DNA of 64,000 bases from an uncultured Gammaproteobacteria bacterium (lineage in GTDB: Bacteria; Patescibacteriota; Microgenomatia; UBA1406; HO2-37-13b). The stretch spans positions 159,129 through 223,128 of the forward strand of contig CAYPSA010000001.1 in assembly GCA_964413645.1 (NCBI GenBank), read 5' to 3'. Below, one piece after another: positions 9,388-63,982 of the stretch (positions within the stretch are counted from its first letter, which is position 1; every line of letters begins with the position of its first letter). Both the position numbers and the translations under genes were made by a program. Below the pieces are notes generated by a model that ran no database searches, was not told the origin of the DNA, and saw only the letters and a program-made list of their open reading frames with translations.

Positions 9388-9404
9388 GATTCTAAAAACA
9401 AGTT

Positions 9405-9708
9405 GCGCGACTGACCGGACTGCCAACCGGCGACCTGTCCGACAACTGTCGGACCGCTCTAACCAACTGAGCATATGTATGCGCGACTGACCGGACTGCC
9501 AACCGGCGACCTGTCCGACAACTGTCGGACCGCTCTAACCAACTGAGCATATGTATGCGCGACTGACCGGACTGCCAACCGGCGACCTGTCCGACAACTG
9601 TCGGACCGCTCTAACCAACTGAGCATATGTATGCGCGACTGACCGGACTGCCAACCGGCGACCTGTCCGACAACTGTCGGACCGCTCTAACCAACTGAGC
9701 ATATGTAT
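9405..9708 (-). repeat. four perfect 76-bp tandem repeats, each a tRNA-Asp-derived pseudo-tRNA
   Basis: The unit gcgcgactgaccggactgccaaccggcgacctgtccgacaactgtcggaccgctctaaccaactgagcatatgtat recurs at 9405, 9481, 9557 and 9633. Each unit keeps the D-arm, variable loop and T-stem of the adjacent tRNA-Asp. The anticodon arm is replaced by a perfect 7-bp stem with a 4-nt loop, the T-loop is 8 nt, and the 5' acceptor strand is degenerate. Confidence 0.9.
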
Positions 9709-9709
9709 G

Positions 9710-9783
9710 CGCGACTGACCGGACTCGAACCGGCGACCTTCCGCGTGACAGGCGGACGCTCTAACCAACTGAGCTACAATCGC
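9710..9783 (-). tRNA. tRNA-Asp(GUC)
   Basis: Acceptor GCGATTG/CAGTCGC, D-arm GCTC-AGTTGGTTA-GAGC, anticodon stem TCCGC/GCGGA with loop CTGTCAC, and T-arm GCCGG-TTCGAGT-CCGGT. Confidence 0.85.
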
Positions 9784-10040
9784 TTTAAAGATATTTTTTT
9801 ATTCGTAACTATTTTATCAATTATTTCCTTACTTTTAAGCTTTTTCAGGCTGCTCTCAATCCTACGTGCTTCAATCAAAGTTTCAAACTGCTGACAAAAC
9901 ACCATTGTAAATGGTAATGTTGATTTCGTTGCTTTCACTTTTCCTCTATTGTGCTCATCTAATCTTCGGTCGATATCACTCGATGAGCCAATATAATATC
10001 TCTTATTCTTATCTGACTGTAAAATATAAACGAAACTCAT
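9774..10040 (-). CDS. small GIY-YIG nuclease family protein (UPF0213/YhbQ-like, 88 aa)
   Basis: MSFVYILQSDKNKRYYIGSSSDIDRRLDEHNRGKV is a canonical GIY-YIG core. The ORF is AT-rich between GC-rich tRNA-like flanks, and its last codons AAG-CGA-TTG-TAG overlap the 5' acceptor stem of tRNA-Asp. Confidence 0.8.
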   Translation of the reverse strand: MSFVYILQSDKNKRYYIGSSSDIDRRLDEHNRGKVKATKSTLPFTMVFCQQFETLIEARRIESSLKKLKSKEIIDKIVTNKKISLKRL

Positions 10041-10097
10041 AACCGGCGACCTGTCCGACAACTGTCGGACCGCTCTAACCAACTGAGCTACAATCGC
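10041..10097 (-). repeat. partial pseudo-tRNA(Asp-like) copy: 5' acceptor, D-arm and pseudo anticodon hairpin, truncated at the T-stem where the GIY-YIG ORF starts
   Basis: GCGATTGTAGCTCAGTTGGTTAGAGCGGTCCGACAGTTGTCGGACAGGTCGCCGGTT is followed directly by the GIY-YIG ATG. Confidence 0.8.
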
Positions 10098-10139
10098 TTT
10101 GTTAAATTATACCATTTTTTATTCCAGTATAATAGAATA

Positions 10140-11906
10140 ATGCGTCCTTCCAACAAACAAATTGCTCACATTCTTCGATCGGTTGCTGCGGTATATGAAC
10201 TTAAAGGGGCGAATCGTTTTCGAATTATTGCGTACAATAATGCCGCGGATACGATTGATAATTTAAATAGGGAACTAGTTGATATTTGGGAGAACAAAGA
10301 ACTCTCAAAAATCGCAGGAATTGGATCGTCCATGACTGAGCGGCTTGCTGAGTATTTTGAAAAGGGAGATGATTCATATTTAATAAAAACGATTCAGGAG
10401 GTTCCGGCTCCTATTTTTGATTTAATGCGTGTACCAGGAATTGGGGTAAAAAAAGCGTTCAAGCTTGTATCAAATCTGCACTTAGAACAGTCTAAAGATA
10501 TATTTAGCGACATTATTGACCAAGCAAAAGCCGGAAATATTGCTCCACTTGATTCATTTGGTGAAAAATCGCAAGTAGAAATTATTGCAGCGGTTGAATT
10601 GTATGAAAAATCAAAGGGAAATGCAGATCGTATGCCATTACCTATTGCTCATGAACTGGCAATGGAGGTAATTGCGTACGTAAAAAAACATCCTCATGTT
10701 GGTGAAGTTGAAGCGCTCGGGTCACTGCGCCGATGGATGAGTACGATAGGAGATATTGATTTGGTTGCAATAGTGCCTACGGAGCATTTTGCATCGGTTA
10801 TCGAGCATTTTGTTAAATTTCCAGGAGCTGCCAAAATTGAAGCACAAGGAGAAAATAAGGCATCAATAATTTTGGCAAATGGTCGACGGATTGATCTGCG
10901 CGTCGTAGAGAGTGGGGTCTACGGGTCGATGATCCAGTATTTTACTGGTAGCAAAGCGCATAATATTAAGCTTCGAGAATTAGCGCTCAAAAAGGGATAC
11001 TCAATCTCCGAATACGGTATTGGCGATAAGAGCGAGAAAGGAACAATCGGACGGTCAAAAACATTTGCATCCGAAAAGGATTTTTATGAATATTTAGGTG
11101 TAGATTGGATTCCGCCTGAACTACGTGAAGGAACGAGTGAGGTTGATATTGCGGTTAAACACGAGATTCCGGAGCTCGTAAAAGTTTCCGATGTAAAAGG
11201 AGATTTTCATATACATTCTAATTACGATTTAAACACTTCTCACGATCTTGGCCACGAAAGCGTTGTCGACATAGCTCAAAAAGCTCAATCACTCGGTTAT
11301 GAATATATTGCAATTTCCGATCACAATCCTGCTCAAAATGTCCCTAAGGAGAAAGTAATTGAAATAATGAAAAAAAGATTCGAACATATGAAATCGCAAA
11401 AAACTGTAATTCCATGTTTTGTTTCGCTTGAAATAGATATTACTCCTAGCGGAGATCTTGCACTGCCCGAAGAAGCATTTAACTATTTAGATATGGCAGT
11501 CGTTTCATTGCACAGTTCATTTCGACAAAGTCGTACCGACATGACAAAACGAGTTTTAAAAGCGCTTTCACACGAAAAAGTAAAAATCTTTGGGCATCCA
11601 ACCGGTCGACAATTGGGTAAGCGACCTGAAGTAGATGTTGATTGGACGACTGTTTTTAAGTTTTGTAAAGAAAAAAATATAGCACTTGAAATTAATAGTT
11701 GGCCTGAACGGTTAGATCTTCCTGACATGCTCGTCCGTGAAGCAAAGGAGATCGGATGTAAATTCACCATCGATACCGATGCCCATGCTATCTCACAAAT
11801 GGATAACATGTTTTATGGCGTTTCCGTTGCACGTCGCGGGTGGCTTGACAAGAATGATATAATGAACTGTAAGGGGTATAAAGAAGTAGTTAAATGGATT
11901 GGCTAG
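10140..11906 (+). CDS. polX: DNA polymerase X family protein with C-terminal PHP phosphoesterase domain
   Basis: N-terminal HhH/pol-beta-like region followed by PHP motifs (HIHSNYD, DHN). TATAAT at 10128-10133 lies 6 nt before the ATG, so the mRNA is probably leaderless. Confidence 0.8.
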   Translation: MRPSNKQIAHILRSVAAVYELKGANRFRIIAYNNAADTIDNLNRELVDIWENKELSKIAGIGSSMTERLAEYFEKGDDSYLIKTIQEVPAPIFDLMRVPGIGVKKAFKLVSNLHLEQSKDIFSDIIDQAKAGNIAPLDSFGEKSQVEIIAAVELYEKSKGNADRMPLPIAHELAMEVIAYVKKHPHVGEVEALGSLRRWMSTIGDIDLVAIVPTEHFASVIEHFVKFPGAAKIEAQGENKASIILANGRRIDLRVVESGVYGSMIQYFTGSKAHNIKLRELALKKGYSISEYGIGDKSEKGTIGRSKTFASEKDFYEYLGVDWIPPELREGTSEVDIAVKHEIPELVKVSDVKGDFHIHSNYDLNTSHDLGHESVVDIAQKAQSLGYEYIAISDHNPAQNVPKEKVIEIMKKRFEHMKSQKTVIPCFVSLEIDITPSGDLALPEEAFNYLDMAVVSLHSSFRQSRTDMTKRVLKALSHEKVKIFGHPTGRQLGKRPEVDVDWTTVFKFCKEKNIALEINSWPERLDLPDMLVREAKEIGCKFTIDTDAHAISQMDNMFYGVSVARRGWLDKNDIMNCKGYKEVVKWIG

Positions 11907-13456: not shown

Positions 13457-13527
13457 GTCATTCTGAGTGACGCTACTGTCATTCTGAGCCAGAGGCGACC
13501 TGCCTGCCGGCAGGCAGGAGAATGACA
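13457..13527 (+). repeat. MITE-like palindromic repeat (GTCATTCTGAG family), two tandem 5' half-copies plus a GC palindrome
   Basis: gtcattctgag at 13457 and 13478, the perfect palindrome cctgcctgccggcaggcagg at 13499-13518, and a terminal gagaATGACag that supplies the nth start codon. Confidence 0.8.
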
Positions 13528-14202
13528 GCTAATTTTATGATTAAAAACGAAACCCCCGAAGACATTCTAGATCGCAAAGAACGTGCAAAAATTGTAAATC
13601 AACAACTCACCAAGCTTTTTCCTGAACCAAAAGTAGAACTAAATTATTCAAATGTGTGGGAGCTTTTGGTAGCAGTTATTTTGTCTGCCCAGTGCACCGA
13701 TAAACGAGTCAATATTGTTACAGAAAAATTATTCAAAAAGTATCCAACAATTACCGACTACTGTAATGTTTCATCTGAAGAATTTGAAAAAGATGTCGCA
13801 TCTATTAATTTCTTTCGTAACAAAACTAAAAATATTCTTGCGGCTGCAAAATTAATTCATAATAGTTTTGGAGGAGTAGTACCCAAAACTATGGCAGAGC
13901 TCATGTCTGTTCCAGGAGTAGCTCGTAAAACTGCAAATGTAATATTGAACGACGGATATGATATACAGGAAGGCATAATTGTAGATACTCACGTAATACG
14001 ATTGTCTAATAAATTTAAACTTACCGACGAAAAAGATCCAGTAAAAATCGAACGTGATCTTATGGAAATAGTTCCGAAGAAAGAGTGGAAATATTTTTCA
14101 CATCGTTTAGTGCATTATGGACGACGAATTTCAAAAGCACGTCATACGCTCAGCAATGATGATCCAGTGAGTGTGGCTCTTGCAGCCGCGCATTTAGCCT
14201 AG
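13522..14202 (+). CDS. nth: endonuclease III family DNA glycosylase (HhH-GPD) lacking the C-terminal [4Fe-4S] cysteine cluster
   Basis: LVAVILSAQCTDKRVN and VPGVARKTANVIL carry the catalytic Lys, and VDTHVIR carries the catalytic Asp. There are no Cys residues in the C-terminal 60 aa. Confidence 0.8.
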   Translation: MTANFMIKNETPEDILDRKERAKIVNQQLTKLFPEPKVELNYSNVWELLVAVILSAQCTDKRVNIVTEKLFKKYPTITDYCNVSSEEFEKDVASINFFRNKTKNILAAAKLIHNSFGGVVPKTMAELMSVPGVARKTANVILNDGYDIQEGIIVDTHVIRLSNKFKLTDEKDPVKIERDLMEIVPKKEWKYFSHRLVHYGRRISKARHTLSNDDPVSVALAAAHLA

Positions 14203-14528: not shown

Positions 14529-15951
14529 TATAAGCGATCTTACCATTGAAAAAGCTCAAGAGCTCCTTAGAAATAAAGAGCTTTCTGCTTCGGATCTTGT
14601 TGGCGCATGTATGGATAATATCATCAAGCATAATCCCACATTGAATGCTGTACTTACTGTCAATGGCACCGCGCTTGCCGATGCAAAAGAAGCAGATGCT
14701 CTTATTGCGCAAGACCCAAATATTTTTCAAGAGAAGCCACTTTTGGGTATTCCATTGCTCCATAAAGATGTTTATTCGACTAAAAATCTACGAACTACCG
14801 CAGCTTCAAAAGTTTTGGAAGAATATATTCCTCCGTATGATGCCACCGTCGTAAAGAAATTGCAAGAAGCTGGCGCTATAACGTTGGGAAAGACAAATCT
14901 AGACGCATGGGCGCACGGATCATCCGGTGAAAATTCAGATTTTGGTGCTACAAAAAATCCATATGACTTAGAAAGAACTCCAGGGGGATCAAGTAGCGGG
15001 TCTGCTGCCGCACTAGTGGCAGGTATGAGTTTGGTTACAACTGGCACAGACACGGGAGGATCAATTCGACTGCCAGCAGCTTTTTGCAACATCGTGGGTC
15101 TGAAACCAACATACGGTCGAGTGTCGCGATATGGAATTATAGCAATGGGATCTTCATTTGATTCCATTGGTCATTTTACACGAACAGTAACTGATAGTGC
15201 CAAAATTCTTTCTGTAACTGCTGGTTTAGACCGTCACGACGGTACAACAGTTCCACATACTCCCCCCCAGTATCATGAGAATTTGTCAGCGACCTCACTC
15301 AAAGGAAAAAAAATTGGAATCGTTAAAGAATTTGATCAAACAGGTTCCGATAAAGAAGTATCAGACGTGACAAAAAAAGCAATTCAAAAAATACAATCAC
15401 TTGGAGCAGAAATTGTAGAAATATCACTTCCACATGCAAAGTATGCTATTGCAACCTATTATATTCTTATACCTGCGGAAGTAAGCTCTAACTTGGGTCG
15501 TATGACAGGAACACGCTTTGGTAAGGGGTTTGAGGCTTTCGGCGATGAAGCAAAACGACGTATTATTATTGGCACCTACACATTATCGGCAGGGTATTAT
15601 GATGCGTATTATAATAAAGCGCTCAAAGTTCGCACGCTTATTAAAAATGATTTTGACAAAGCATTTGAAAAAGTTGACGCACTTGTATGCCCGGTTTCTC
15701 CAACCGTTCCATTTAAACTTGGCGAAAAAGCCAAAGATCCATTAGCGATGTATTTATGTGATGTGTTTATAGCTCCCATGAGCTTGGCCGGCGTTCCATC
15801 ACTATCAGTTCCAGCCGGATCAGTCAATGGTTTGCCGGTGGGAATTCAATTTGTGACAAAACATTTCGATGAAGAAAGTCTTTATAAGATTGCCTTTGCC
15901 TACGAGCAGGCGAGAGGAGATATTGAAGGATTAAATAAAGTGTCATCCTGA
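14521..15951 (+). CDS. gatA: Glu-tRNA(Gln) amidotransferase subunit A (amidase)
   Basis: Amidase signature GGSSSGSAAALVAG. The start MNNISDL overlaps the gatC stop by 8 nt. The stop TGA lies inside a GTCATCCTGA repeat. Confidence 0.9.
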   Translation: MNNISDLTIEKAQELLRNKELSASDLVGACMDNIIKHNPTLNAVLTVNGTALADAKEADALIAQDPNIFQEKPLLGIPLLHKDVYSTKNLRTTAASKVLEEYIPPYDATVVKKLQEAGAITLGKTNLDAWAHGSSGENSDFGATKNPYDLERTPGGSSSGSAAALVAGMSLVTTGTDTGGSIRLPAAFCNIVGLKPTYGRVSRYGIIAMGSSFDSIGHFTRTVTDSAKILSVTAGLDRHDGTTVPHTPPQYHENLSATSLKGKKIGIVKEFDQTGSDKEVSDVTKKAIQKIQSLGAEIVEISLPHAKYAIATYYILIPAEVSSNLGRMTGTRFGKGFEAFGDEAKRRIIIGTYTLSAGYYDAYYNKALKVRTLIKNDFDKAFEKVDALVCPVSPTVPFKLGEKAKDPLAMYLCDVFIAPMSLAGVPSLSVPAGSVNGLPVGIQFVTKHFDEESLYKIAFAYEQARGDIEGLNKVSS

Positions 15952-15992
15952 ACGATCAGTCTGTCATCCTGAGGCAGAGCCGAAGGAGCTCA
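15942..15992 (+). repeat. MITE-like repeat, GTCATCCTGA half-copy pair plus hairpin
   Basis: gtcatcctga at 15942 and gtcatcctgag at 15963, followed by gcagagccgaaggagctcag. Confidence 0.75.
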
Positions 15993-16008
15993 GTAAAATA
16001 CTAATATT

Positions 16009-17358
16009 ATGAATAATTACAAACCAACAATCGGACTTGAAATTCATGTAGAGCTTTCAACTAAAAGTAAAATGTTTTGTAGTTGTCCTGCTGACTGGTT
16101 TGGAAAAAAACCAAATACTCATACGTGTCCAGTTTGTTTAGGATTACCAGGAGCTCTTCCTGTTGCCAACGAAAAAGCAATTGAATGGACAATAAAAATT
16201 GCTCAGGCACTTAACTGCACCATTCCATCAATCTCAAAGTTCGATCGAAAGCATTATATTTACCCCGATCTTCCAAAAAGCTTTCAGCTTAGTCAATATG
16301 ACGAACCTATTGGACAAAAGGGAAGCCTAAGTGTGCATTTTGATTCAATTGATAGTATCAAAAGCTTTGGAATAACCCGCGTACATTTAGAAGAAGATGC
16401 CGGAAAACTTATTCATAATGGTACTGAGTCTTGGGTTGATTACAATCGATCTGGAGTTCCGTTAGTAGAAATAGTAACTGAACCAGATTTCCATTATTCT
16501 TCAGAAGTAAAAAAATTTCTTGAAGAATTACATAACCTTATTAGGGCATTAGAAGTTTCGGATGCGAATATGGAAGAAGGTTCTATGCGACTTGAGCCGA
16601 ATATATCCGTTGGCTTGTCATCTTCGACCTCGCTGCCTCCATATAAAGTTGAGGTAAAAAATATCAATTCATTCAAGTTTGCTAAAAATGCAATTGATTA
16701 CGAAGTAAAACGACATATAGAAATTCTTGAAAAAGGAGAAATTCCGGTGCAAGAAACTCGAGGATATGTAGAAAAGAATGCATCTACTATTTCCCAACGT
16801 ATTAAGGAAGAAGCACAAGATTACCGATATTTTCCAGAACCCGATATTCCACCACTGATGTTCTCAAATGAGTATGTCGAGAGTATTAAGCGTACAATTC
16901 CCGAATTACCCTCCGCACGACTTGTTCGATATGTAAAAAATGAGGGAGTCTCGTTTAACGATGCTTATATCATTACGCGCAGTGTAGAACTTACAGAGTA
17001 TTTTGAAAAACTCATCGTCATTCTGAGATCCTTGCCTGCCGGCATGCAGGAAGCGAAGAATCCGAGTGTTACATCATCTAGACTCGCTTCTATGCTCGTA
17101 AACAAACGCATTTCGATGGCCGATTCTCCTAAGGACTCAATCAAAAAAGCAGTCGACTCATCTTCTCCAATCCAGACAGACGAATCAGCGCTCTCAGAAG
17201 CAATTAAAAAAGTAATTTCCGAGCAACCCAAAGCCGTAGCAGAGTACAAATCAGGCAAGGAAACAGTCCTTATGTTCCTAGTTGGAATGGTTATGCGTGA
17301 AATGAAAGGTCAGGCAGATGCGAATACGGTGAAAGAAAGCCTGATTAAATCTCTCTAG
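16009..17358 (+). CDS. gatB: Asp-tRNA(Asn)/Glu-tRNA(Gln) amidotransferase subunit B
   Basis: MNNYKPTIGLEIHVELSTKSKMFCSCPA at the N-terminus and a GatB/YqeY-like C-terminus. Confidence 0.9.
   Translation: MNNYKPTIGLEIHVELSTKSKMFCSCPADWFGKKPNTHTCPVCLGLPGALPVANEKAIEWTIKIAQALNCTIPSISKFDRKHYIYPDLPKSFQLSQYDEPIGQKGSLSVHFDSIDSIKSFGITRVHLEEDAGKLIHNGTESWVDYNRSGVPLVEIVTEPDFHYSSEVKKFLEELHNLIRALEVSDANMEEGSMRLEPNISVGLSSSTSLPPYKVEVKNINSFKFAKNAIDYEVKRHIEILEKGEIPVQETRGYVEKNASTISQRIKEEAQDYRYFPEPDIPPLMFSNEYVESIKRTIPELPSARLVRYVKNEGVSFNDAYIITRSVELTEYFEKLIVILRSLPAGMQEAKNPSVTSSRLASMLVNKRISMADSPKDSIKKAVDSSSPIQTDESALSEAIKKVISEQPKAVAEYKSGKETVLMFLVGMVMREMKGQADANTVKESLIKSL
17017..17075 (+). repeat. MITE-like repeat copy embedded in-frame inside gatB
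   Basis: gtcattctgagatccttgcctgccggcatgcaggaagcgaagaatccgagtgttaca begins on codon 337 and reads VILRSLPAGMQEAKNPSVT. Confidence 0.7.
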
Positions 17359-18079
17359 CCCCAAATTCTCGGGGAATCATGCGAACATATAGCCCATTGT
17401 TCCAGTTTGTAAATTCGGATAAAGCGCCGTACTCACCCTCAAATCTGTCTGTATTGATAGTATGAAGCGGCATATCCTCTCCTTTGTCGTAAGGTGTTAT
17501 TTCGTGTAATCCACTTGATCGATTGACCGCCTCCTTTAAAGGATAGAGCAGCGTAAGGTAGCTGTCAGAAACAGCGTCAATACGAAACCCTGCTTTTAAT
17601 TTAGCTTGAATAGAAGCGGGCTTGCTTAATTTTACTCGAGTTACTACGAGGGGTAGATTACTTTGTGAAGCCCACCCAACGCGTGCTTGAGTAATTTGAG
17701 TATTTAGCCCGTGTCCACGGTATTCAGCTTGAGTAAATGCATCAGTTATAAATGCATAGCGAGATTTCGCTGATAAATGATAATAAGGATAATGACAGCT
17801 TTGAGCACGAACACTACCAGCAGCAATTATTTGATTTTGATCGAATACTGCAAAAACTGCAGGATCTAAATAACTATCTCCAGTTCCAACAAGCCCGTTT
17901 GTGTCTAAAATATTTTCGTAATACTTAAATTTTCTAGATTTGTGATCATCTGAAAGAGGATGCCCATCATGAGCATTTTTCCAGATTTCCCAGTCTACCA
18001 GTTCATTAACGGTCTGTAGTCTTCTGGCTGGACCCACTCTCAATACGTCCTTGGGTGGCTCTAAAAGTATTTCTTTCAT
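17345..18079 (-). CDS. hypothetical protein, possibly GNAT-fold acyltransferase-like
   Basis: AFITDAFTQAEYRGHGLNTQI weakly resembles GNAT motif A; no other recognisable domain. Confidence 0.3.
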   Translation of the reverse strand: MKEILLEPPKDVLRVGPARRLQTVNELVDWEIWKNAHDGHPLSDDHKSRKFKYYENILDTNGLVGTGDSYLDPAVFAVFDQNQIIAAGSVRAQSCHYPYYHLSAKSRYAFITDAFTQAEYRGHGLNTQITQARVGWASQSNLPLVVTRVKLSKPASIQAKLKAGFRIDAVSDSYLTLLYPLKEAVNRSSGLHEITPYDKGEDMPLHTINTDRFEGEYGALSEFTNWNNGLYVRMIPREFGAREI

Positions 18080-18103
18080 GTCCTATATATATCAAATCGC
18101 ACG

Positions 18104-18138: not shown

Positions 18139-21100
18139 ATGTCGTTTACCCATTTACATGTTCACTCCGAATATTCATTGCTCGATGGACTCACTAAAAT
18201 TGACAAACTCGTTGAAGCTGCCAAAGAACAAGGTAGTAGCGCAATTGCTCTTACCGATCATGGAGCAATGTATGGAGCATTTCGATTCTATAAATCTGCA
18301 AAAGCGGCTGGAATTAAGCCAATTATAGGGGTAGAAGCGTATAAGGCAAAAAAAAGCAGATTCGATCAAGCGGGTACCGAGCGTGACCAACATCACCTCC
18401 TTCTTCTGGCAAAAGATAATACTGGCTACAAAAATTTAATGAAGCTTGTTACAAAAGCGCACCTTGAAGGGTATTACTATAAACCTCGCATGGATTTTGA
18501 GATTCTTAAAGAACATTCAGAAGGGATTATCGCAACATCTGGTTGTCTGAATGCCGATATTCCCTCGCTTATTCGCAATGATCAAATAGAAGAAGCCGAG
18601 GACGTTTTAAAGCAGTATTTAGATGTCTTCAAAGATAATTTTTACATTGAGTTGCAGCGATACAGAAACATAGATGATTTAGACCGGGTCAACAAAAAGT
18701 TGCTTGAATTTTCTCGAAAATTCGGTGTTCCTTTAATAGCAACAAATGATGTTCATTATCTAAAACCCGAAGATGCATATGCTCAGGAAGTTCTTCTTTG
18801 TATCCAGACACAGCACAATATGCATGAAAAGAATAGGCCGATGTCTATGCTTGAAACTCCTGAATTTTACTTAAGAACTCCCGATGAAATGAAAACGTTG
18901 TTTTCAGATCTTCCGGAAGCAATTGAAAACACGAATAAGATAGCTGACGTGTGTAATGTAGAAATTCCATCAGGTACGTGGATTGTTCCAAACTACCCAT
19001 TGCCTGAAAATAGGAATTCCTCAGAACATCTTATGGACCTAATACTAGAACGAGCACCAGCTCGAAACCTCGATGCGAATGATCCGGTAATTAGAAAAAG
19101 GATTGATTATGAATTTGATGTTATTTCAACAAAAGGGTACGCAACATATTTTCTTATTGTTGCAGATTTTGTTAACTGGTCGAAAGATCAAGGAATTGCT
19201 GTTGGACCTGGCCGAGGATCAGTGGCAGGGTCAATTATTAGTTATATTCTGCGTATTACCGATATCAATCCACTAGATTACAACCTCCCGTTTGAACGTT
19301 TCTTAACGATGGATCGACCGACACCTCCTGATATTGATATTGATTTTGCCGATACACGACGCGATGAAGTGCTTGCCTACGTTACCCAGAAATATGGCAA
19401 AGAAAAAGTCGCTCAAATTATTACTTTTGGACGAATGGAGGCACGAATGGCAGTGCGTGACACTGCTCGCGCCTTGGGTCACACATACTCACAGGGTGAT
19501 CGAATTGCTAAAATGATTCCTCTTGGAAAACAGGGATTTGCAATGACTATTGATCGTGCGCTCGACGAGAACCCCGTACTTAAAATTGCATATACAACCG
19601 AGGAAGAAACTAAAAAAGTTCTCGATATCGCGCGGAAAGTAGAAAGTATGGCTCGACACTCATCTGTTCATGCGGCTGGCGTAGTTATTGCTGATAAGGA
19701 TCTAACAGAGTATGTGCCGCTTCAGCGTGAATCTAAAGGAGATCGAATAATTACTCAGTATGACATGTATTGTTTAGATCTAAATGCCGTTTCCGATGGT
19801 CAAGCAGTTGGACTAATGAAAATGGACTTTTTGGGTCTACGAAATCTGACCATTTTGGAAAACGCAATCAAGTTCGTGCAAGAAACGACTGGAAATAAAA
19901 TAGATATCCATACAATCTCGCTTGAAGACAAGAAAACATATGAGCTCATGGCTAAAGGTCAAACTATTGGAGTATTTCAACTTGAATCGAGTGGCATGAG
20001 AAAGCTTGCTAAAGAACTTGCACCTAATAAGATGACCGATATTTCAGCTATGGTGGCTCTATATCGCCCCGGACCTATGGATCTTATTCCTAGTTTTTTG
20101 GCGGGAAAGAAGAATCCAGGCAAAATACGATACTTACATCCCGCACTCAAACCGATTCTAGAAGAAACTTATGGAATTCTCGTGTACCAAGAACAGGTCA
20201 TGGAAATAGCTCATCGACTTGCTAGTTTTACACTCTCAGAAGCTGATACATTCCGTATGGCTATTGGAAAGAAAAAGAAAGCGCTTATGAAAATTAGTGA
20301 AGCGAAATTTCGCGAAGGCGCACATAAAAATGGATACTCCAAGGATGTTGTCGATAAAATTTATGGATTTATCGAGAAATTTGCTTCATACGGTTTTAAC
20401 AAAGCACACTCAGCTTCATACGCACTTATTGCTTATTGGACGGGGTACATGAAGGCAAATTATCCCGTAGAGTATATGACGGCATTGCTTTCAGCGGAGT
20501 TGCATGGGTCAGCCGGATCTATTCGCGAGCTAAAAATGTTTCAGGCTATTGAAGAATGTCGCATATTAGACATCACTGTCTTGCCTCCAGATATTAATAA
20601 ATCATTTAATGATTTCTCAATTGAAGATGGTGTTATTCGATTCGGCCTTTCCGCAATTAAAAATGTTGGCGCATCAGCCATCGAATCGATTATTTCTTCA
20701 AGGGCTCAAGGACCATTCACAAGTCTTAAGGATTTGCTAACCCGTATCGACACTCGACGGGTGAATAAAAAAACGGTAGAAAGTCTTATTAAGGCAGGAG
20801 CACTCGATGCATTTGGTGACAGACTTGCCGTGCTAACCTATTATCCCGTCGTTTTGGAAGAAGTTGGTCGTTCTAAAAAAGACACACAACTTGGTCAGTT
20901 CACGCTCTTTGCATCTTCAAATGACAGTAGCTTGCTCGATGATTTGGATACGACTCTAGTTGCCACTACGAGTGATTTGCTAAGCATGGAACGGGAAGTC
21001 TTAGGTTTTTCGATTGATAAAAACCCGCTCGCACAATTTGAAGCAATTATTACGCGCAAAGTTACCAAAAAGATAGGAGAAATTACCATAGAAGATGTCG

Positions 21101-24840: not shown

Positions 24841-24876
24841 GTCATCCTGAGCGACCGAAGGGAGTCGAAGGATCCC
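24841..24876 (+). repeat. MITE-like repeat, short copy
   Basis: gtcatcctgag followed by the hairpin cgaccgaagggagtcg and then aaggatccc. Confidence 0.7.
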
Positions 24877-27164: not shown

Positions 27165-27226
27165 GTCATTCTGAATGACGGTCATGTCATTCTGAGCGTA
27201 AACGAGAAGCTCGGTGTTACATTCCA
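27165..27226 (+). repeat. MITE-like repeat (two half-copies)
   Basis: gtcattctgaatgac hairpin, then gtcattctgagcgtaaacgagaagctcggtgttacattcc. Confidence 0.75.
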
Positions 27227-27827: not shown

Positions 27828-27903
27828 GGGCCCATGGCGCAATTGGTAGCGCACCTCGTTTGCAACGAGGGGGTTAGGAGTTCGAATCTCCTTGGGTCCA
27901 CCA
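27828..27903 (+). tRNA. tRNA-Ala(UGC), CCA encoded
   Basis: Acceptor GGGCCCA/TGGGTCC with the G3:U70 Ala identity pair, anticodon loop TTTGCAA, T-arm AGGAG-TTCGAAT-CTCCT, and 3' ACCA. Confidence 0.85.
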
Positions 27904-28092: not shown

Positions 28093-30920
<2,828 letters not shown>

Positions 30921-31002: not shown

Positions 31003-31067
31003 GTCATCCTGAGTGATCCGCCCACTGGCGGAGATCGAAGAATCTCAGTAATCCGTTATCCTGAACT
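31003..31067 (+). repeat. MITE-like repeat copy
   Basis: gtcatcctgagtgatccgcccactggcggagatcgaagaatctcagtaatccgttatcctgaac. Confidence 0.75.
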
Positions 31068-44513: not shown

Positions 44514-44562
44514 TGATCCGCTAGTTGATTTTACTCCGCCATTTTCTGTACACTAAATATAG

Positions 44563-44664
44563 TCATCCTGAATCCGCAATAGGCGGATGAAGGATCTCGG
44601 TGTGCAAAACACCCAGATTCTTCGTTACCTGCCTGCCGCCAGGCATGGCACTCAGAATGACATA
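44563..44664 (+). mobile_element. full-length ~100-bp MITE-like element with inverted termini GTCATCCTGA...TCAGAATGAC
   Basis: gtcatcctgaatccgcaataggcggatgaaggatctcgg ... ttacctgcctgccgccaggcatggcactcagaatgacat, with an internal hairpin and GC palindrome. The terminal ATGAC supplies the ppsA start codon. Confidence 0.8.
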
Positions 44665-53974: not shown

Positions 53975-54030
53975 TCCACATACAGATTCTTCGTCGCAAT
54001 TCGCCAGCTGGCGAAGGTAAAACGCTCAGA
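53975..54030 (-). repeat. MITE-like repeat copy, reverse orientation
   Basis: The reverse complement reads gtcattctgagcgttttaccttcgccagctggcgaattgcgacgaagaatctg. Confidence 0.65.
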
Positions 54031-54062
54031 ATGACCCCATTTATGGTACAATAGTAGGTCAC

Positions 54063-58967: not shown

Positions 58968-60797
58968 ATGAACTTTTTTGGACGGGTATCTGTTTTCGTA
59001 ACATTCATTTTTTTGGTGGCAATATCTCTTTTAACACCTAAAAGTGTTGCTGCTACTCCGTATAAAGTCGTTTATAACGCGGAATATACACCTATCAATG
59101 AATCAGACCTAGCAGTAAAGCTCCTTATTTCTTTACAAAACCTACGATCCGATGTATACATTCGAGAATTCAGTATTAATTTACCACCTCACTTCGCAAT
59201 TGTTAATCCGCAAACCAAAATAGAGAACGAAGTGGCACAAGCCCAAATAAAATCAGAAAAGAACAGTACCCAAATTACTTTTTCTCTTCCCGAAAGTTCT
59301 GCAAGCAATAAAACTCAAACCAACCTAGAACTTACGTATACACAAAAAAATGGCATACGACATGTGGGCTCAATTTGGGAAGTGATTCTACCTACTATTT
59401 CAAATAAAGAAAACTCATCGTTTTCTGCTTTGTTTCATGTCCCGCCAAGAGTTGACAGGCATGTTGGAGTAATCAAACCTGCTCCAACTGAAGTTTCAGG
59501 CGAAATCATTCGATGGGATAATGTTAAACAATCAGTTATCTATATTGCTTTTGGAACTTCTCAACGGTATCAATCAAATTTAACGTATACCATCAAGAAT
59601 CCTGATTTATTGACAAAAAAAACATCTATCGCGCTTCCACCACATACATCCTATCAAAAAATTTATGAAAATTTTATCGATCCCCAACCCGCACGAACAT
59701 ATATTGATTCCGATGGAAATTATCTTGCAGAATATACTCTCAGACCAAAGCAAGAGATGATGATTCATTATTCAGGAATAGTAGAAGTTTTTGCCCGTCC
59801 TAATAATGACATGAGGCCGTTTAATGAAATTGCGTATAACGAACAGAAAAAATATATTTTCAATAATGTTTCTTACTGGAATGTTCCAAAGTCGTACGAA
59901 TTTCCCGAAAAAATCACCTCTGTTAAAGACGTTTTTGATCGTGTAGTGAATCATCTTAGTTACGATAAGGAACAAATCAAATCATCTGGATCGCGTAAAG
60001 GCGCTCAATTTGCCCTTACAAATCCCAATCAAGCTGTTTGTACTGAATATACCGATTTATTTGTGGCTCTTGCTCGAAATGCCAATTTTCCAGCTCGTGA
60101 AATCGAAGGATTTGCATATAGTGATGACCCAACATTGCGTCCACAATCATTTTCTGGCGATATTTTACATTCTTGGCCCGAGTATTATGACGAATCTCAA
60201 AGCTTGTGGATTCCCACAGATCCTACTTGGGCTGATACATCCAACATAGATTACTTTAGCTCTTTTGACTTGAATCACATTGTACTTGCAATTCATGGAA
60301 AGGATCCCGTATATCCACTACCTGCAGGAATGTATAAAGTGCGTGATCAAAAAGATATAGATATTAAGCCAATCGCCACACTTCCCAAGGAAATAAAAAA
60401 TATCAGCGCAACAATTTCCATGAATGAAACCGTTGCTCCGCTTTCCACAGCACACGGATCAGTTATTATCGAGAATAAGAGTAATGTGTTTTTAGTTGAT
60501 CCTTCATTTAGACTAAAAAGCTCCTCGTTAACGTTTAAACCAAACGTGCTTTCAACCAAACTAATTGCGCCAAATGAAAAGCGCGAAATTAAATTTAGCT
60601 ACACAGTTTCAAAGAATGCGTCGGAAACGAACAAAGCTCGTGTATCACTACTTCTGGATGAAAATGAAATTGCTTACGAAGATCTATCTATACAATCATC
60701 TTTTGAATCAATTTTAAATTATGTAATTGGTATCGCAATTGCTCTCATCATACTTGTTCTTGTTTTCTTCAAATACATTAAACATCGAATTTCATGA
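58968..60797 (+). CDS. transglutaminase-like domain protein with N-terminal signal/TM and C-terminal TM anchor
   Basis: QAVCTEYTDLFVALARNANFPAREIEGFAY contains the catalytic Cys of a transglutaminase-like core. Both ends are hydrophobic. Confidence 0.6.
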   Translation: MNFFGRVSVFVTFIFLVAISLLTPKSVAATPYKVVYNAEYTPINESDLAVKLLISLQNLRSDVYIREFSINLPPHFAIVNPQTKIENEVAQAQIKSEKNSTQITFSLPESSASNKTQTNLELTYTQKNGIRHVGSIWEVILPTISNKENSSFSALFHVPPRVDRHVGVIKPAPTEVSGEIIRWDNVKQSVIYIAFGTSQRYQSNLTYTIKNPDLLTKKTSIALPPHTSYQKIYENFIDPQPARTYIDSDGNYLAEYTLRPKQEMMIHYSGIVEVFARPNNDMRPFNEIAYNEQKKYIFNNVSYWNVPKSYEFPEKITSVKDVFDRVVNHLSYDKEQIKSSGSRKGAQFALTNPNQAVCTEYTDLFVALARNANFPAREIEGFAYSDDPTLRPQSFSGDILHSWPEYYDESQSLWIPTDPTWADTSNIDYFSSFDLNHIVLAIHGKDPVYPLPAGMYKVRDQKDIDIKPIATLPKEIKNISATISMNETVAPLSTAHGSVIIENKSNVFLVDPSFRLKSSSLTFKPNVLSTKLIAPNEKREIKFSYTVSKNASETNKARVSLLLDENEIAYEDLSIQSSFESILNYVIGIAIALIILVLVFFKYIKHRIS

Positions 60798-62092
60798 TTA
60801 CTTCCAAAGATATTTCATCGATTCCATCAACGACTGGAGTGTATTTTTTCTATAAAAACGATATTCCGATTTACATCGGAAAGGCAGTTAATTTGAAAGC
60901 TCGATTAACGTCGCACTTGCAGAATGCTAAATTAGACAGAAAAGAAGCCGCAATAATCGAACAAGCAGACCGAGTTGACTACACGCAAACCCTTTCAGAT
61001 TTTGAGGCAATAATTTTGGAAGCAAACTTAGTGCGCAAATTCATGCCGCAATACAATATTCAGCTCAAAGATGATAAGAGTTATTTATATATAAAAATTT
61101 CAATCAAAGATAAGTATCCAAAGATATCCTTAGTTCGACGTGAAAATGATGGAAATTCGCTTTACTTTGGTCCATTCCAATCAAATCGCTTAACCCGATC
61201 ACTTCTTTCACATATACGAAAAATAGTATCATTTTGTACCCAAAAAAAACTAGGAAGAACCGGATGTTTTTACTCTAAAATTGGGCTTTGCAATCCATGT
61301 CCTTCGGCTGTTGATCGCCTGGAAGATCAAACACTCAAAAAAGTTCTTCATCAACAGTATTTACACAACATTAAATTAATTGTAAAAATTTTTGATGGAA
61401 ACTCATCCTTCGTGCTCAAGCATTTAGAAAAAGATCTTCTTATTGAAACTCAGAAAGAAAATTATGAAAAAGCTTTAGTAATCCGTGACAAACTATTACT
61501 TCTCGAGAATTTACTCCATACACGCTCCTTTTCGTCTTGGGACGACATTCGTATTACCAATAAGGCCAGCATTAGGACGGCAATAGAAGAGTTTATGCTA
61601 GCAAATTTTGCCGCCTCACAAATCTCGACGAGCTTTAGGATCGAATGTTACGACATTAGTAATCTATTCGGGAAAGACGCCACTGCATCAATGGTTGTTT
61701 TTCAAGATGGGGGAATAGAGAAAAAGGAATACAGACGTTTCAAAATTAGAACTGTACAGGGGATTTCGGATTTTGCAATGCTTCAGGAAGTTTTAACCCG
61801 TCGATTTAATCAAAGTAAATGGCAGCGTCCCGATTTGCTTGTTATCGACGGAGGACCCCCGCAACTACGAGCTACTCGCAAAATACTTGAAGAATTACAG
61901 ATTTCTATTCCCATGATTGGCATAGCAAAACACCCTGACCGACTTTTTAAAGTTGCAGGACGTATTTCGCCAGCTTTATATAGACGTAATTCAACTTTTT
62001 TTAGAATAATTCAAGAAATCCGCGACGAATCACATCGTTTCGCAAAAAAATACCATTTACTTCTACGGAACAAAAAAATGGTGTATAATTAA
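60794..62092 (+). CDS. uvrC: excinuclease ABC subunit C, short form lacking the C-terminal (HhH)2 domain
   Basis: N-terminal GIY-YIG (GVYFFYKNDIPIYIGKA...RL..H), a UVR-like helix, and the endonuclease domain motifs VIDGGPPQL and IRDESHRFA. The protein ends after 432 aa. Confidence 0.85.
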   Translation: MITSKDISSIPSTTGVYFFYKNDIPIYIGKAVNLKARLTSHLQNAKLDRKEAAIIEQADRVDYTQTLSDFEAIILEANLVRKFMPQYNIQLKDDKSYLYIKISIKDKYPKISLVRRENDGNSLYFGPFQSNRLTRSLLSHIRKIVSFCTQKKLGRTGCFYSKIGLCNPCPSAVDRLEDQTLKKVLHQQYLHNIKLIVKIFDGNSSFVLKHLEKDLLIETQKENYEKALVIRDKLLLLENLLHTRSFSSWDDIRITNKASIRTAIEEFMLANFAASQISTSFRIECYDISNLFGKDATASMVVFQDGGIEKKEYRRFKIRTVQGISDFAMLQEVLTRRFNQSKWQRPDLLVIDGGPPQLRATRKILEELQISIPMIGIAKHPDRLFKVAGRISPALYRRNSTFFRIIQEIRDESHRFAKKYHLLLRNKKMVYN

Positions 62093-62096
62093 GCCT

Positions 62097-62303
62097 ATGT
62101 TACTTATCGCAACAATCATTTTAAGTCTACTTATAACAGTGCTTATTCTTATGCAAGGCCGCGGCGCTGGGCTCGGAAGTGCATGGGGTGGCGGAGGAGA
62201 ATTCTTCCAAACACGTCGTGGAATTGAAAAAGTTACACTCCAATTAACCGTTGTTTTGATTGTACTCTTCTTTATTGTTTCAGTGATTAACTTGGTTTCG
62301 TAA
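62097..62303 (+). CDS. secG: preprotein translocase subunit SecG
   Basis: Two TM helices flanking a Gly-rich loop LMQGRGAGLGSAWGGGGEFF. Confidence 0.8.
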   Translation: MLLIATIILSLLITVLILMQGRGAGLGSAWGGGGEFFQTRRGIEKVTLQLTVVLIVLFFIVSVINLVS

Positions 62304-62307
62304 GCTT

Positions 62308-63651
62308 GTGAATAAAAAGATTCGATACTACTATTGGCTCATTCGAGCATTTTTAGGCAAGAATGCTCGCTTCATGATTATAAGCGCCATCGGCAGCTTT
62401 TTTCTAATTTTTTCTATTATCAATTTCTATCCAGTCATTGATGCATCACTATTCACCCAAAAAGAGATCATTGGTATGGTAGGTGAATACCAAGTACAAT
62501 CTCCTCCATCAGAAATTGCAGCACATATTTCAAATCCGCTCATCAATATTAACGACAAAGGCCAAATCGTTCCGCTTCTTATTGATTCATGGAGCATGAG
62601 CAAAGATGGAAAAACATATCGATTCAATTTGAAAAAGAATCTTTATTGGAGCGATAAAAAGCCGTTCACTGCTCATGATATTAGGTATAAATTCAACGGT
62701 ATTACTATGAAAGTTATCGACGATATGACTATCGAATTTCATCTTTCCCAAAAACTTGCTACGTTTCCAATCTATTTAACACGTCCATTAATTAAGTATC
62801 CGCTCATTGGAATTGCTGGCGTATATGATAGACAAAGCTATAAGGCATCAAAAGGCAACATTACCGAGATGCGTTTGATTCCAAACAAAAAAGATCTTCC
62901 AACTATTACATATAAAATGTACACAAATGATAAAGCGCTTGTAAATGCGTATAAACGCGGAGAAATTAGAAATTTTAATACATCTCGTAAATCGATCGCA
63001 GATGTGTTTGAAACATGGAAGAATTCAACAGTAACAAAATCTGTCGACTATAGTCAAATAATGACGCTTTTTTATAATACTCAAGCCGGAATTTTGGAAG
63101 ATAATGATTTTAGACGTGCGCTTAATTATGCAACTCCACCTGAAAAAACGAATGGACAACCTGCAAGTGGCCCAATTCCACCCACTTCGTGGGCATACTA
63201 CTCTAATTTGAAACGGTATGCATATGACCCAGAAAAGGCACAAGGCATTGTTGAAAAGAAAACCGCATCTGAATCTGCAACGCTTTCGCTTACAACTTTC
63301 TATGAGAATATTACCCTAGCAGAGGAACTTAAGAAGAATTTTGAAGCAATTGGAATTAAGGTAAATCTAAAAATTCTGTCTTACATCCCCGACGATTTTG
63401 AATTACTACTAACTGCATGGAGCCCTCCGCAAGATCCTGATCAGTATTTTTTCTGGCACTCAACACAAAATGAAGGAAATATTACCAAGCTGAAAGATGT
63501 AAAAATTGATAAAGAGCTTGAGGATGGTCGAAATTATATTCAAGTTGCCCGTCGAAAAGCCGTGTATCAGCAGTTTCAGAAATCTCTAGTTGATGAAGCC
63601 CCTGCAAACTTTTTGTACTATCCGTATCAATACGAAGTGAAGCGAAAATAA
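62308..63651 (+). CDS. ABC transporter substrate-binding protein, family 5-like (peptide/nickel type), N-terminal TM anchor
   Basis: The length, domain order and the WSPPQDPDQYF region resemble SBP_bac_5. It starts with GTG. Confidence 0.5.
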   Translation: MNKKIRYYYWLIRAFLGKNARFMIISAIGSFFLIFSIINFYPVIDASLFTQKEIIGMVGEYQVQSPPSEIAAHISNPLININDKGQIVPLLIDSWSMSKDGKTYRFNLKKNLYWSDKKPFTAHDIRYKFNGITMKVIDDMTIEFHLSQKLATFPIYLTRPLIKYPLIGIAGVYDRQSYKASKGNITEMRLIPNKKDLPTITYKMYTNDKALVNAYKRGEIRNFNTSRKSIADVFETWKNSTVTKSVDYSQIMTLFYNTQAGILEDNDFRRALNYATPPEKTNGQPASGPIPPTSWAYYSNLKRYAYDPEKAQGIVEKKTASESATLSLTTFYENITLAEELKKNFEAIGIKVNLKILSYIPDDFELLLTAWSPPQDPDQYFFWHSTQNEGNITKLKDVKIDKELEDGRNYIQVARRKAVYQQFQKSLVDEAPANFLYYPYQYEVKRK

Positions 63652-63652
63652 G

Positions 63653-63982
63653 TTAATCCATACTGTCTATAACTATAGAGGCATCCAGCGTATTCACTCT
63701 TTTATCATTGTTAATGTCCTCGGCTAAATTTTCACCTGATTGACCGTATTTATTAACGAGAATTCTGTAATCTGCCCAGTCAACTATTCCATCTCCATTT
63801 AAGTCTTGCGTCTTGATCTTTCTGAACTCGTTTATAGTATCGCGATTAAATGGTTTTATATTACAATCTGCTTGACAGTTATTAACGTCCTCACCAATGG
63901 CCTTGTCGCAAATATTATTACCACACATATTCTTCGGAGTAACAGCAACCTGTTTTGGAATATTGAAATCGCTTAATTTCAT
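63653..63982 (-). CDS. small dockerin-repeat protein
   Basis: DLNGDGIVDWADYRIL and DINNDKRVNTLDASIV are a dockerin type-I Ca-binding repeat pair. Confidence 0.55.
   Translation of the reverse strand: MKLSDFNIPKQVAVTPKNMCGNNICDKAIGEDVNNCQADCNIKPFNRDTINEFRKIKTQDLNGDGIVDWADYRILVNKYGQSGENLAEDINNDKRVNTLDASIVIDSMD

Follow-up and report, generated by a model that had tools for sequence, protein, structure and literature searches.

How did a short palindromic repeat come to be read in frame inside gatB, the gene for subunit B of the Asp/Glu-tRNA amidotransferase, in a genome of the candidate phyla radiation (CPR)? The question is raised by a stretch of 64,000 nucleotides (the window) from contig CAYPSA010000001.1 (assembly GCA_964413645.1, positions 159,129 to 223,128, forward strand). 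A sequence-only reading of this stretch had recognised a repeat copy inside gatB, had taken it for an insertion of about 19 residues, and had likened it to the Rickettsia palindromic elements (RPEs) as a second lineage in which such a family colonises essential genes. In our analysis the feature is very probably (roughly 80%) a stem-loop repeat of the repetitive extragenic palindromic (REP) type, belonging to the CGTC/TGTC-tagged class, which would have become embedded in gatB in the ancestor of a small clade and is predicted to be translated. The event is of a known kind, in that an old insertion has been tolerated in a loop at the protein surface, and it does not amount to a second case like that of Rickettsia.

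The gatB element and its orthologues

The host gene occupies 16009-17358 on the plus strand and encodes 449 residues, with Pfam matches to GatB_N (residues 7-291, 3.5e-109) and GatB_Yqey (residues 370-449, 2.1e-17). The gene order gatC-gatA-gatB-dnaE-atp is kept in relatives. Since 16009 + 336*3 = 17017, the element begins at codon 337, and bases 17017-17073 are free of stops and translate to VILRSLPAGMQEAKNPSVT, between YFE (residues 331-333) and RLASMLV (residues 358-364). The start and the open frame were thus correctly called in the sequence-only reading, while the end that it gave, 17075, lies 2 nt beyond the 19th codon.

The 5′ half of the element (17016-17027, plus strand) is made up of the tag CGTC (17016-17019), the outer-stem arm ATTCT (17020-17024) and GAG (17025-17027), in which G17025 and A17026 form part of a G.A clamp. 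These positions are invariant in the alignment of orthologous and paralogous copies. A GC-rich apex of 26 nt, ATCCTTGCCTGCCGGCATGCAGGAAG, follows at 17028-17053, where the 93%-identical orthologue has the 5-nt CGAAG, so that 21 nt (7 residues) are gained on balance. It aligns without gaps with the apices of two other copies, one in the window (44616-44661, minus strand) and one at 18084 in the related locus L001; with the latter, 21 of the 26 positions match by manual count from the alignments. The 3′ half, CGAAGAATC (17054-17062), contains the clamp GA, the outer-stem arm AGAAT and a final C. The last part of the 57-nt translated insert is a lineage-specific tail, CGAGTGTTACA (17063-17073; consensus CTCGGTGTTACA), and a tail of this type also follows the intergenic copies at 27186 in the window and at 20437 in L001. 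The gatB sequence recurs without a difference over 3350 nt in a Logan assembly of SRR8893623 that was built independently, and this speaks against an assembly artefact.

The protein comparison covered the best 120 of 8000 scored GatB homologues, and DNA was aligned for seven relatives, the DNA for P0011 (Roizmanbacteria) being taken via its cluster member P0121. Element-derived residues were found at the site only in the closest clade. They read VIL-SEAKNPGAT in P0002/3 (93% identity to the window), VILIRPLAEKNLGVS in P0004 (84%), VILSE(A/E)KNLGV(T/S) in P0005-7 (83-84%) and VILIRQPAEKDLGVVT in P0011 (68%). The element is absent from P0008/9 and P0010 (80-83%) and from all more distant GatBs (62% or less). 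Relatives of 93%, 84% and 68% identity have a short form of 12 residues (36 nt) at this codon, and the part specific to this genome is the 26-nt apex alone. The supposed insertion of about 19 residues is therefore not peculiar to this genome. The estimate of about 10 residues between YFE and KLAxNWL in orthologues holds roughly, except that the linker length is variable and the nearest relatives already have 12 of the 19 residues. A genuine dispersed palindromic repeat, in frame in gatB and missing from most GatB homologues, is what the comparison bears out. Moreover, the residues are conserved only where the genome carries the repeat elsewhere, other family copies being present in the 6-21 kb examined of the relatives' genomes; no repeat-free homologue keeping them was found among the proteins compared.

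At the DNA level, the element lies at the same gatB codon and in the same frame in L001, L002, L003, L006 and L247, with differing centres. Common to the orthologous copies are the 5′ junction, the frame, the arms GTCATYCTGA and GAAGRATC, and the tail GGTGT. The centre is CGAAG in L001, L002 and L006 (decaying in the last), CCGCCCGCTGGCGGA in L003 and CCGCCAGCCGGCGGA in L247. The L247 copy also carries a compensated variant of the outer stem, ATC...GAT instead of ATT...AAT. Identity to the window at four-fold synonymous sites is 0.44-0.51 for L002, L003 and L006, and 0.39 for L247. Compared with the window, the element ends show no change in L002, two changed bases in L003 (one in each of the 5′ and 3′ halves), three in L006, and the compensated pair only in L247. 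The element ends have changed far less than the four-fold synonymous sites.

In a neighbour-joining tree of 18 sequences, computed with the linker removed, the element-bearing GatBs form one clade, in which P0011 is basal and within which P0008/9 and P0010, both without the element, also fall. L004 and L005 carry apparent 3′ remnants (TCGGT, CAGGTG) rather than clean empty sites. On these sequences, the parsimonious history would be a single old insertion, after which the centre changed at least twice and the element was lost or decayed twice. TCATC, which flanks the window copy, was considered as a target-site duplication and dropped, as it is not common to the orthologues. No intragenic copy was found in more distant gatB genes among 80 metagenome loci (relatives of 65% identity or less).

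The following course of events is proposed. In the ancestor of a clade related to Roizmanbacteria, a unit would have entered gatB at the connector between two helices of the helical domain. It may have arrived as the short form with its lineage-specific tail, which has 36 nt (12 codons) and, in the frame beginning at GTC, one of its stop-free frames, reads VILSEAKNLGVT. It was presumably tolerated because the length of this connector is variable among homologues. The element ends would then have stayed intact in most descendants while the gene neared synonymous saturation, one lineage having compensated ATT...AAT to ATC...GAT. In the lineage of the window the apex appears to have been exchanged, as the 26-nt apex, homologous to other genomic copies, stands where the nearest relative has CGAAG, with the frame kept. 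Gene conversion or template switching between dispersed copies, with the conserved arms as microhomology, would be the most likely route. Some lineages would later have lost or degraded the element. No dedicated transposase is apparent for the original insertion, which is also the case with other CGTC-type REPs. The locus offers a natural experiment, in which one site is found in six or more orthologous states (the short form, two long apices, a compensated stem, and decayed or lost forms). Such a series could be used to gauge how the element changes, by gene conversion or by decay, and how far the loop of the GatB helical domain tolerates insertion.

The structural context agrees with such tolerance. 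The linker length at the site varies among GatB homologues. Against solved GatB structures (3AL0, 3H0L, 2DF4 and others) the sequence aligns without a break as far as about residue 340, and again from residue 354 (3H0L) or 390 (3AL0). An AlphaFold2 model of the protein (mean predicted local distance difference test score, pLDDT, 80; predicted template modelling score 0.74) has a helix at 326-341 that ends in five residues of the element (VILRS), then a short helix (344-348) and the next one at 356-364. Residues 342-355 are of low confidence, and the loop falls below pLDDT 50 at 348-351. The insert is predicted to lengthen the helix by about 5 residues and to enlarge the helix-loop-helix connector as a flexible surface loop, in agreement with the variable linker length of the homologues. 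It adds 12-19 residues to GatB, probably neutrally. A second insertion in GatB was observed in L247, the Roizmanbacteria locus (10586-10720, residues ~201-225), where Gly/Glu/Arg-rich ARRGGEDREIGGGGGEEEKLGGG stands in the catalytic domain after EPNISV. Purine-rich repeats of the GGAGGAG type encode it, and it is unrelated to the hairpin element.

Copies in the window and across bacteria and phages

The gatB segment at 17017 is 83% complementary over 54 nt to 44608-44661, and the window has 12 occurrences of GTCATTCTGAG at up to one mismatch where 1.04 would be expected, a count reached in none of 100 shuffles. The window copies share the layout GTCATYCTGAG, GC-rich hairpin, CGAAGRATC. The tag is CGTC in the gatB copy, TGTC in most other window copies and most orthologues, and AGTC or GGTC in four window copies. 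Every copy other than that of gatB is intergenic or lies in a leader. On the plus strand, a partial unit and a unit with the same CCTGCCTGCCGGCAGGCAGG apex are found at 13457-13528 (fold z = -4.65). Two units occupy the gatA-gatB spacer (15942-15993), and a similar element is present in L001, L003 and L247 and absent in L002, L004 and L006, where gatA and gatB overlap. The atpA-atpG spacer contains a C-G stem variant with a 14-nt apex (24841-24874), and the atpD-atpC spacer a partial unit followed by a degenerate unit with an GGTGTTACA tail (27165-27221). The copy at 31003-31049, which follows the 23S rRNA and precedes the true topA start, has an apex (CCGCCCACTGGCGG) resembling that of the L003 gatB copy. 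An inverted dimer (44562-44661; 44562-44596 on the plus strand and 44616-44661 on the minus strand) precedes a phosphoenolpyruvate (PEP)-utilising enzyme gene, and a minus-strand copy (53985-54035) lies in the 5′ leader of a TP_methylase gene. Three open reading frames (ORFs) that overlap copies were considered as further intragenic cases and rejected, as Pfam puts the true starts of topA, the PEP-utilising enzyme and the TP_methylase downstream. Extra copies from relaxed matching were likewise set aside; the 10 matches against 3.5 in controls look like chance. The gatB copy is therefore the sole truly intragenic one in the 64 kb.

The spacers atpA-atpG and atpD-atpC hold TGTC-tagged elements in several relatives as well, with differing stem variants and apices (L001 at 18084 and 20437, L002 at 20322-20390, L247 at 20445-20570). 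At atpA-atpG, neither the stem type nor the apex is the same in the window as in its 93%-identical relative. Different elements in the same orthologous atp spacers indicate fast turnover at fixed sites.

Outside the window, the pattern GTCATYCTGAG-N(1-31)-CGAAGRATC was scanned in viral contigs and in species-representative genomes, at least 120 loci being collected from each. The repeat has the form (T/C)GTC-ATYCT-GA-[variable apex]-GA-AGRAT-C, and the hairpin was found in many viral contigs as well as in bacteria of at least 15 phyla. The genome matches include Nitrospirota, Chloroflexota, Acidobacteriota, Bacteroidota (cultured Lacinutrix and Flavobacterium), Firmicutes, several CPR groups, Deltaproteobacteria, Rickettsiales, Melainabacteria and Omnitrophota. 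The family is therefore pan-bacterial, and specific neither to one lineage nor to the CPR. The Y in the arm ATYCT and its partner R in AGRAT covary almost without exception over 360 copies (T-A 177, C-G 176, unpaired 7). A second search, in which only the centre GAGC-NNN-GCGA was fixed and the stem was left free, gave 437 matches, 139 of them with five of five Watson-Crick pairs, including the compensated stems ATTCC/GGAAT, ACCCT/AGGGT and ATGCT/AGCAT. In this sample the tag is TGTC in 122, CGTC in 18 and another in 15, the loop is mainly GNA, and the commonest tail is CTC (68), C-T-N being found in most others.

The anatomy of the element can be described as an unpaired (T/C)GTC tag, a 5-bp outer stem ATYCT/AGRAT, a tandem G.A/A.G, an apex and a short tail. 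The stem ATYCTGAG/CGAAGRAT counts 8 positions and begins AT...AT; its five outer pairs covary, and positions 6-7 are the non-Watson-Crick G.A/A.G. The apex is either a GC-GNA-GC mini-hairpin, in the short form, or a longer GC-rich hairpin. The modal centre length is 5 nt (CGNAG; 63/178 viral and 76/182 genomic copies) in a range of 3-31 nt, compared with 26 nt in gatB. Dimers occur mostly in the +/- geometry (46), more rarely as -/+ (8) or direct (6). The covariation of the stem suggests selection at the level of structure.

TGTC hairpins were also observed directly upstream or downstream of gatB in other, unrelated CPR lineages (L251, L254-L256, L264, L297 and L298). Their stems are compensated, ATTCC/GGAAT, ATGCT/AGCAT and ATTGC/GCAAT, the last with the same GAG...CGAAG clamp.

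At the gathering threshold, an Rfam search of the whole window returned the 23S rRNA and five tRNAs only, and a permissive search with the gatB copy and the short-form cluster gave chance-level matches (E ≥ 0.55). All-against-all clustering of 2418 ORFs within 1.5 kb of 240 loci disclosed no neighbour gene recurring across genomes, the largest cluster of genome neighbour ORFs spanning 5 of 120 loci. No transposase domain was detected in the 35 window ORFs newly scanned, three of the 54 ORFs (60794-63982) lying outside the scan. In the global sample, 23 copies are co-oriented with flanking genes and 17 anti-oriented, which amounts to no bias, and a strand-specific role in RNA was rejected on this ground. 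Literature searches with the element sequence gave primer matches only, and those with its typical translations (VILSEAKDL, RFAQNDK and others) gave no match. A hammerhead ribozyme (GUC...CUGA...GAA) was rejected by inspection, as was a K-turn or C/D-box, neither the CUGANGA core nor the 3-nt bulge nor a stem I being present. A motif conserved over many phyla and phages, with neither an Rfam family nor an evident transposase, raises the question of how it is maintained and spread.

Translated copies are not confined to gatB. In the samples, 45 of 180 viral and 22 of 185 genomic copies sit within ORFs that run on for 60 codons or more to either side, some of these ORFs being spurious high-GC frames. 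The genome contig L215 encodes a NuoG-like protein of 1012 residues (Pfam Fer2_4, NADH-G_4Fe-4S_3 and Fer4), and towards its C-terminus a cluster of many translated antisense motif copies (...SQNDIVLKTQNDG...NAQNDVMATTRNDI...) was observed. This in-frame colonisation is much more extreme than that of gatB. Long phage ORFs with copies in L049, L075, L036 and L048 are real or very probably real proteins, judged from length and composition; they have no significant Pfam domain, with a sub-threshold DUF927 match in L049 only. In annotation work, a peptide of the type VILSEAK(D/N)L or ...AQ(N/D)D... marks translated repeat DNA rather than a protein motif.

Some further observations concern other parts of the window. 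Between gatB and dnaE, a 244-codon ORF (17345-18079, minus strand) is convergent with gatB, overlaps its last 14 nt and has no Pfam match in the window. Its family is present in the window, L003, L005 (with a weak Acetyltransf_3 match) and L006 (two copies) and absent in L001, L002, L004 and L247; this patchy presence marks it as a variable accessory gene of the gatB-dnaE junction. The 23S rRNA gene (28094-30919) stands apart from any 16S gene within the window, a tRNA (27828-27900) precedes it, and the family copy at 31003 begins 84 nt past its 3′ end. The region 9404-10100 (minus strand) holds a tRNA-Asp(GTC) (9709-9783) and then four tandem 76-nt tRNA-like units, each with a D-arm and an anticodon arm with a GTT-like loop, and with a disrupted T-loop; ARAGORN and Rfam called none of these units. 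A GIY-YIG endonuclease ORF of 102 codons (9777-10082) precedes the tRNA-Asp(GTC) and starts directly after another partial copy of the tRNA-like unit (10041-10100).

Weighing the readings

Several points count against an old insertion of a tagged REP followed by exchange of its apex. The hairpin of the gatB copy is imperfect and folds no better than shuffles (z = -0.27), and the apex may simply be in decay. The ends could be conserved partly because the peptide (VIL...KN) is under selection, or because gene conversion has homogenised the copies recently, rather than through a constraint on the hairpin. The single-insertion history is drawn from a neighbour-joining tree of 18 sequences that carries no support values. 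Gene conversion is suggested by similarity, with neither tract nor donor, and the translation of the insert as part of GatB is a prediction from the reading frame. Furthermore, the present subfamily departs from the published CGTC/TGTC REPs in two features: positions 6-7 of the stem are a tandem G.A/A.G where the published stems are fully paired, and the loop is GNA within CGNAG, often replaced by hairpins of up to 31 nt, where the published loop has 4-5 nt.

It has also to be asked whether the hairpin is kept in gatB for a function of the nucleic acid, such as mRNA processing or stability, a translational pause or a DNA site for a host factor, the peptide being incidental. This proposal, which is compatible with an old REP insertion, would account for the compensated stem of the L247 coding copy, for element ends better conserved than four-fold synonymous sites and for the pan-bacterial covariation of the stem, and REPs have been proposed as RNA elements (PMC3733652). 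Nevertheless, L004 and L005 have dispensed with the element and that of L006 is decaying, the copies show no bias of orientation, the gatB copy has no fold beyond that of shuffled sequence, and gene conversion would also yield changes that appear compensated. We regard such a function in gatB as unlikely.

A further possibility is that gatB contains a hot spot, where different family members were inserted or re-inserted independently, so that the centres of the window, L001/L002, L003 and L247 each record a separate event. The centres are indeed entirely different between orthologues, and each type is known elsewhere in the same or related genomes. The orthologous gatA-gatB, atpA-atpG and atpD-atpC sites hold different forms in close relatives, which suggests high turnover at preferred sites. 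Recurrent insertion, however, would hardly leave an identical 5′ junction and frame in all five lineages, together with a common GGTGT tail. The element-bearing proteins are, moreover, monophyletic in the neighbour-joining tree, L004 and L005 keep what appear to be 3′ remnants rather than clean empty sites, and no other GatB among the best 120 of 8000 or in the 80 metagenome loci has an intragenic copy. Separate insertions at one site are consequently judged quite improbable.

A native GatB linker resembling the repeat by chance or through peptide selection, or an assembly chimera, is effectively refuted: the region is variable and poorly modelled by GatB_Yqey, which matches only from residue 370, but its nucleotides are identical to the family tag, both arms and the tail, with nothing similar in shuffles, it is absent from all GatBs outside one small clade (in the same 120 proteins and 80 loci), the motif is pan-bacterial and mostly intergenic, and the sequence recurs in the second assembly, the element being found also in six independently assembled relatives.

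An inherited REP-type insertion is therefore preferred. Beyond it, a more far-reaching proposal can be put forward tentatively, and we would give it odds well short of even: the TGTC-tagged "G.A-clamp" hairpin (TGTC-ATYCT-GA-[apex]-GA-AGRAT-CTC) might be an undescribed module shared across bacteria and phages, with its base under structure-level selection, possibly through a shared trans-acting factor, and its apex modular and exchangeable. If this were true, gatB would show that such a module can stay intact in an essential ORF while protein identity falls to 68%, its stem having changed in a compensatory way and its apex having been swapped. It would be a nucleic-acid element evolving semi-independently of the protein that is translated from it. 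The interest of the locus lies in its orthologous series, with modular turnover of the apex and a compensated stem within an essential ORF, in the CPR host, and in an apparently uncatalogued subfamily of pan-bacterial and phage distribution.

Comparison with known systems

[quoted passage not shown] They are small non-autonomous repeats, represented by Correia/NEMIS, ERIC and BOX, which can fuse in frame with host ORFs (PMC10969869). The gatB element was rejected as a MITE, as it is a single tagged hairpin with no target-site duplication common to the orthologous junctions and no parent IS seen. With the GTAG-tagged REPs and REPINs the element has in common a short tagged hairpin, frequent inverted dimers and occasional intragenic copies. 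These differ in their GTAG tag, (C/T)GTC being found here, and they are flanked by or associated with RAYT tyrosine transposase genes; no RAYT/Y1 transposase was found among the scanned window ORFs or as a recurrent neighbour across the 240 loci.

The comparison with RPEs is apt as an analogy. The RPEs first described, of ~150 bp, were reported in Rickettsia genomes and encode a conserved peptide. The long RPEs (RPE-1 and others) are likewise palindromic repeats placed in frame in unrelated, often essential genes at surface-exposed, permissive sites. The present element differs from them in length (36 nt in the short form and 57 nt here) and in its distribution over many phyla. It does not belong with the long RPEs, and the likeness holds through the superfamily discussed next, which includes RPE-4 and RPE-6.

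The closest match is the superfamily of CGTC-tagged REPs (Di Nocera et al. 2013, BMC Genomics 14:522, PMC3733652). As described there, these repeats have a CGTC tag (TGTC in many), a stem of 8-9 bp beginning A-T, T-A, a loop of 4-5 nt, atypical in some families, and a 3-nt tail with the consensus CCA. HH dimers predominate; of the inverted dimers one type is dominant and the other rare, and direct dimers are negligible. A dedicated transposase is not known, and five phyla are represented. Rickettsia conorii RPE-6 (CGTC-1) and RPE-4 (CGTC-4) are members, as is Neisseria dRS3. Intragenic in-frame copies were recorded in many species of several phyla, and the translated units VIPAKAGI, VILDGRNIEF and RHSELVSGS are given in the supplement.

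The present repeats share with this superfamily the tag, the unpaired 3-nt tail, one dominant type of inverted dimer and the lack of an associated transposase. In the stem of 8 positions beginning A-T, T-A and in the short modal loop the likeness is partial. They are mostly intergenic, with in-frame intragenic copies read as VI(P/L/A)... peptides, and are spread over several phyla. The units given in the supplement share their frame and 5′ half with VILSEAKN. By tag, tail, dimers, the absence of a transposase and intragenic copies, the element falls within the superfamily, the dimers agreeing in their counts while the equation of the +/- geometry with the HH label is unconfirmed. The tail is CTC here and CCA in the published families. 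The VILSEAK-type peptide does not appear in the published list of intragenic REPs, and CPR, Chloroflexota, Acidobacteriota, Nitrospirota, Firmicutes and viral contigs are among the hosts that lie outside its CGTC list. At the Roizmanbacteria locus we also observed an apparent CGTC-1-type unit, GTCATTCCCGCGGAGGCGGGAATC; it translates to VIPAEAGI, which in our own reading is close to the VIPAKAGI given for CGTC-1 in the paper.

The claim of a second lineage is superseded by these records, as in-frame intragenic REPs were already documented in several phyla (PMC3733652) and are frequent in our own samples. Tagged REP-type repeats have close counterparts in the tiny CPR genomes, and the in-frame presence of palindromic repeats in essential genes is a general property of tagged REP-type hairpins, not a peculiarity of Rickettsia with a single parallel.

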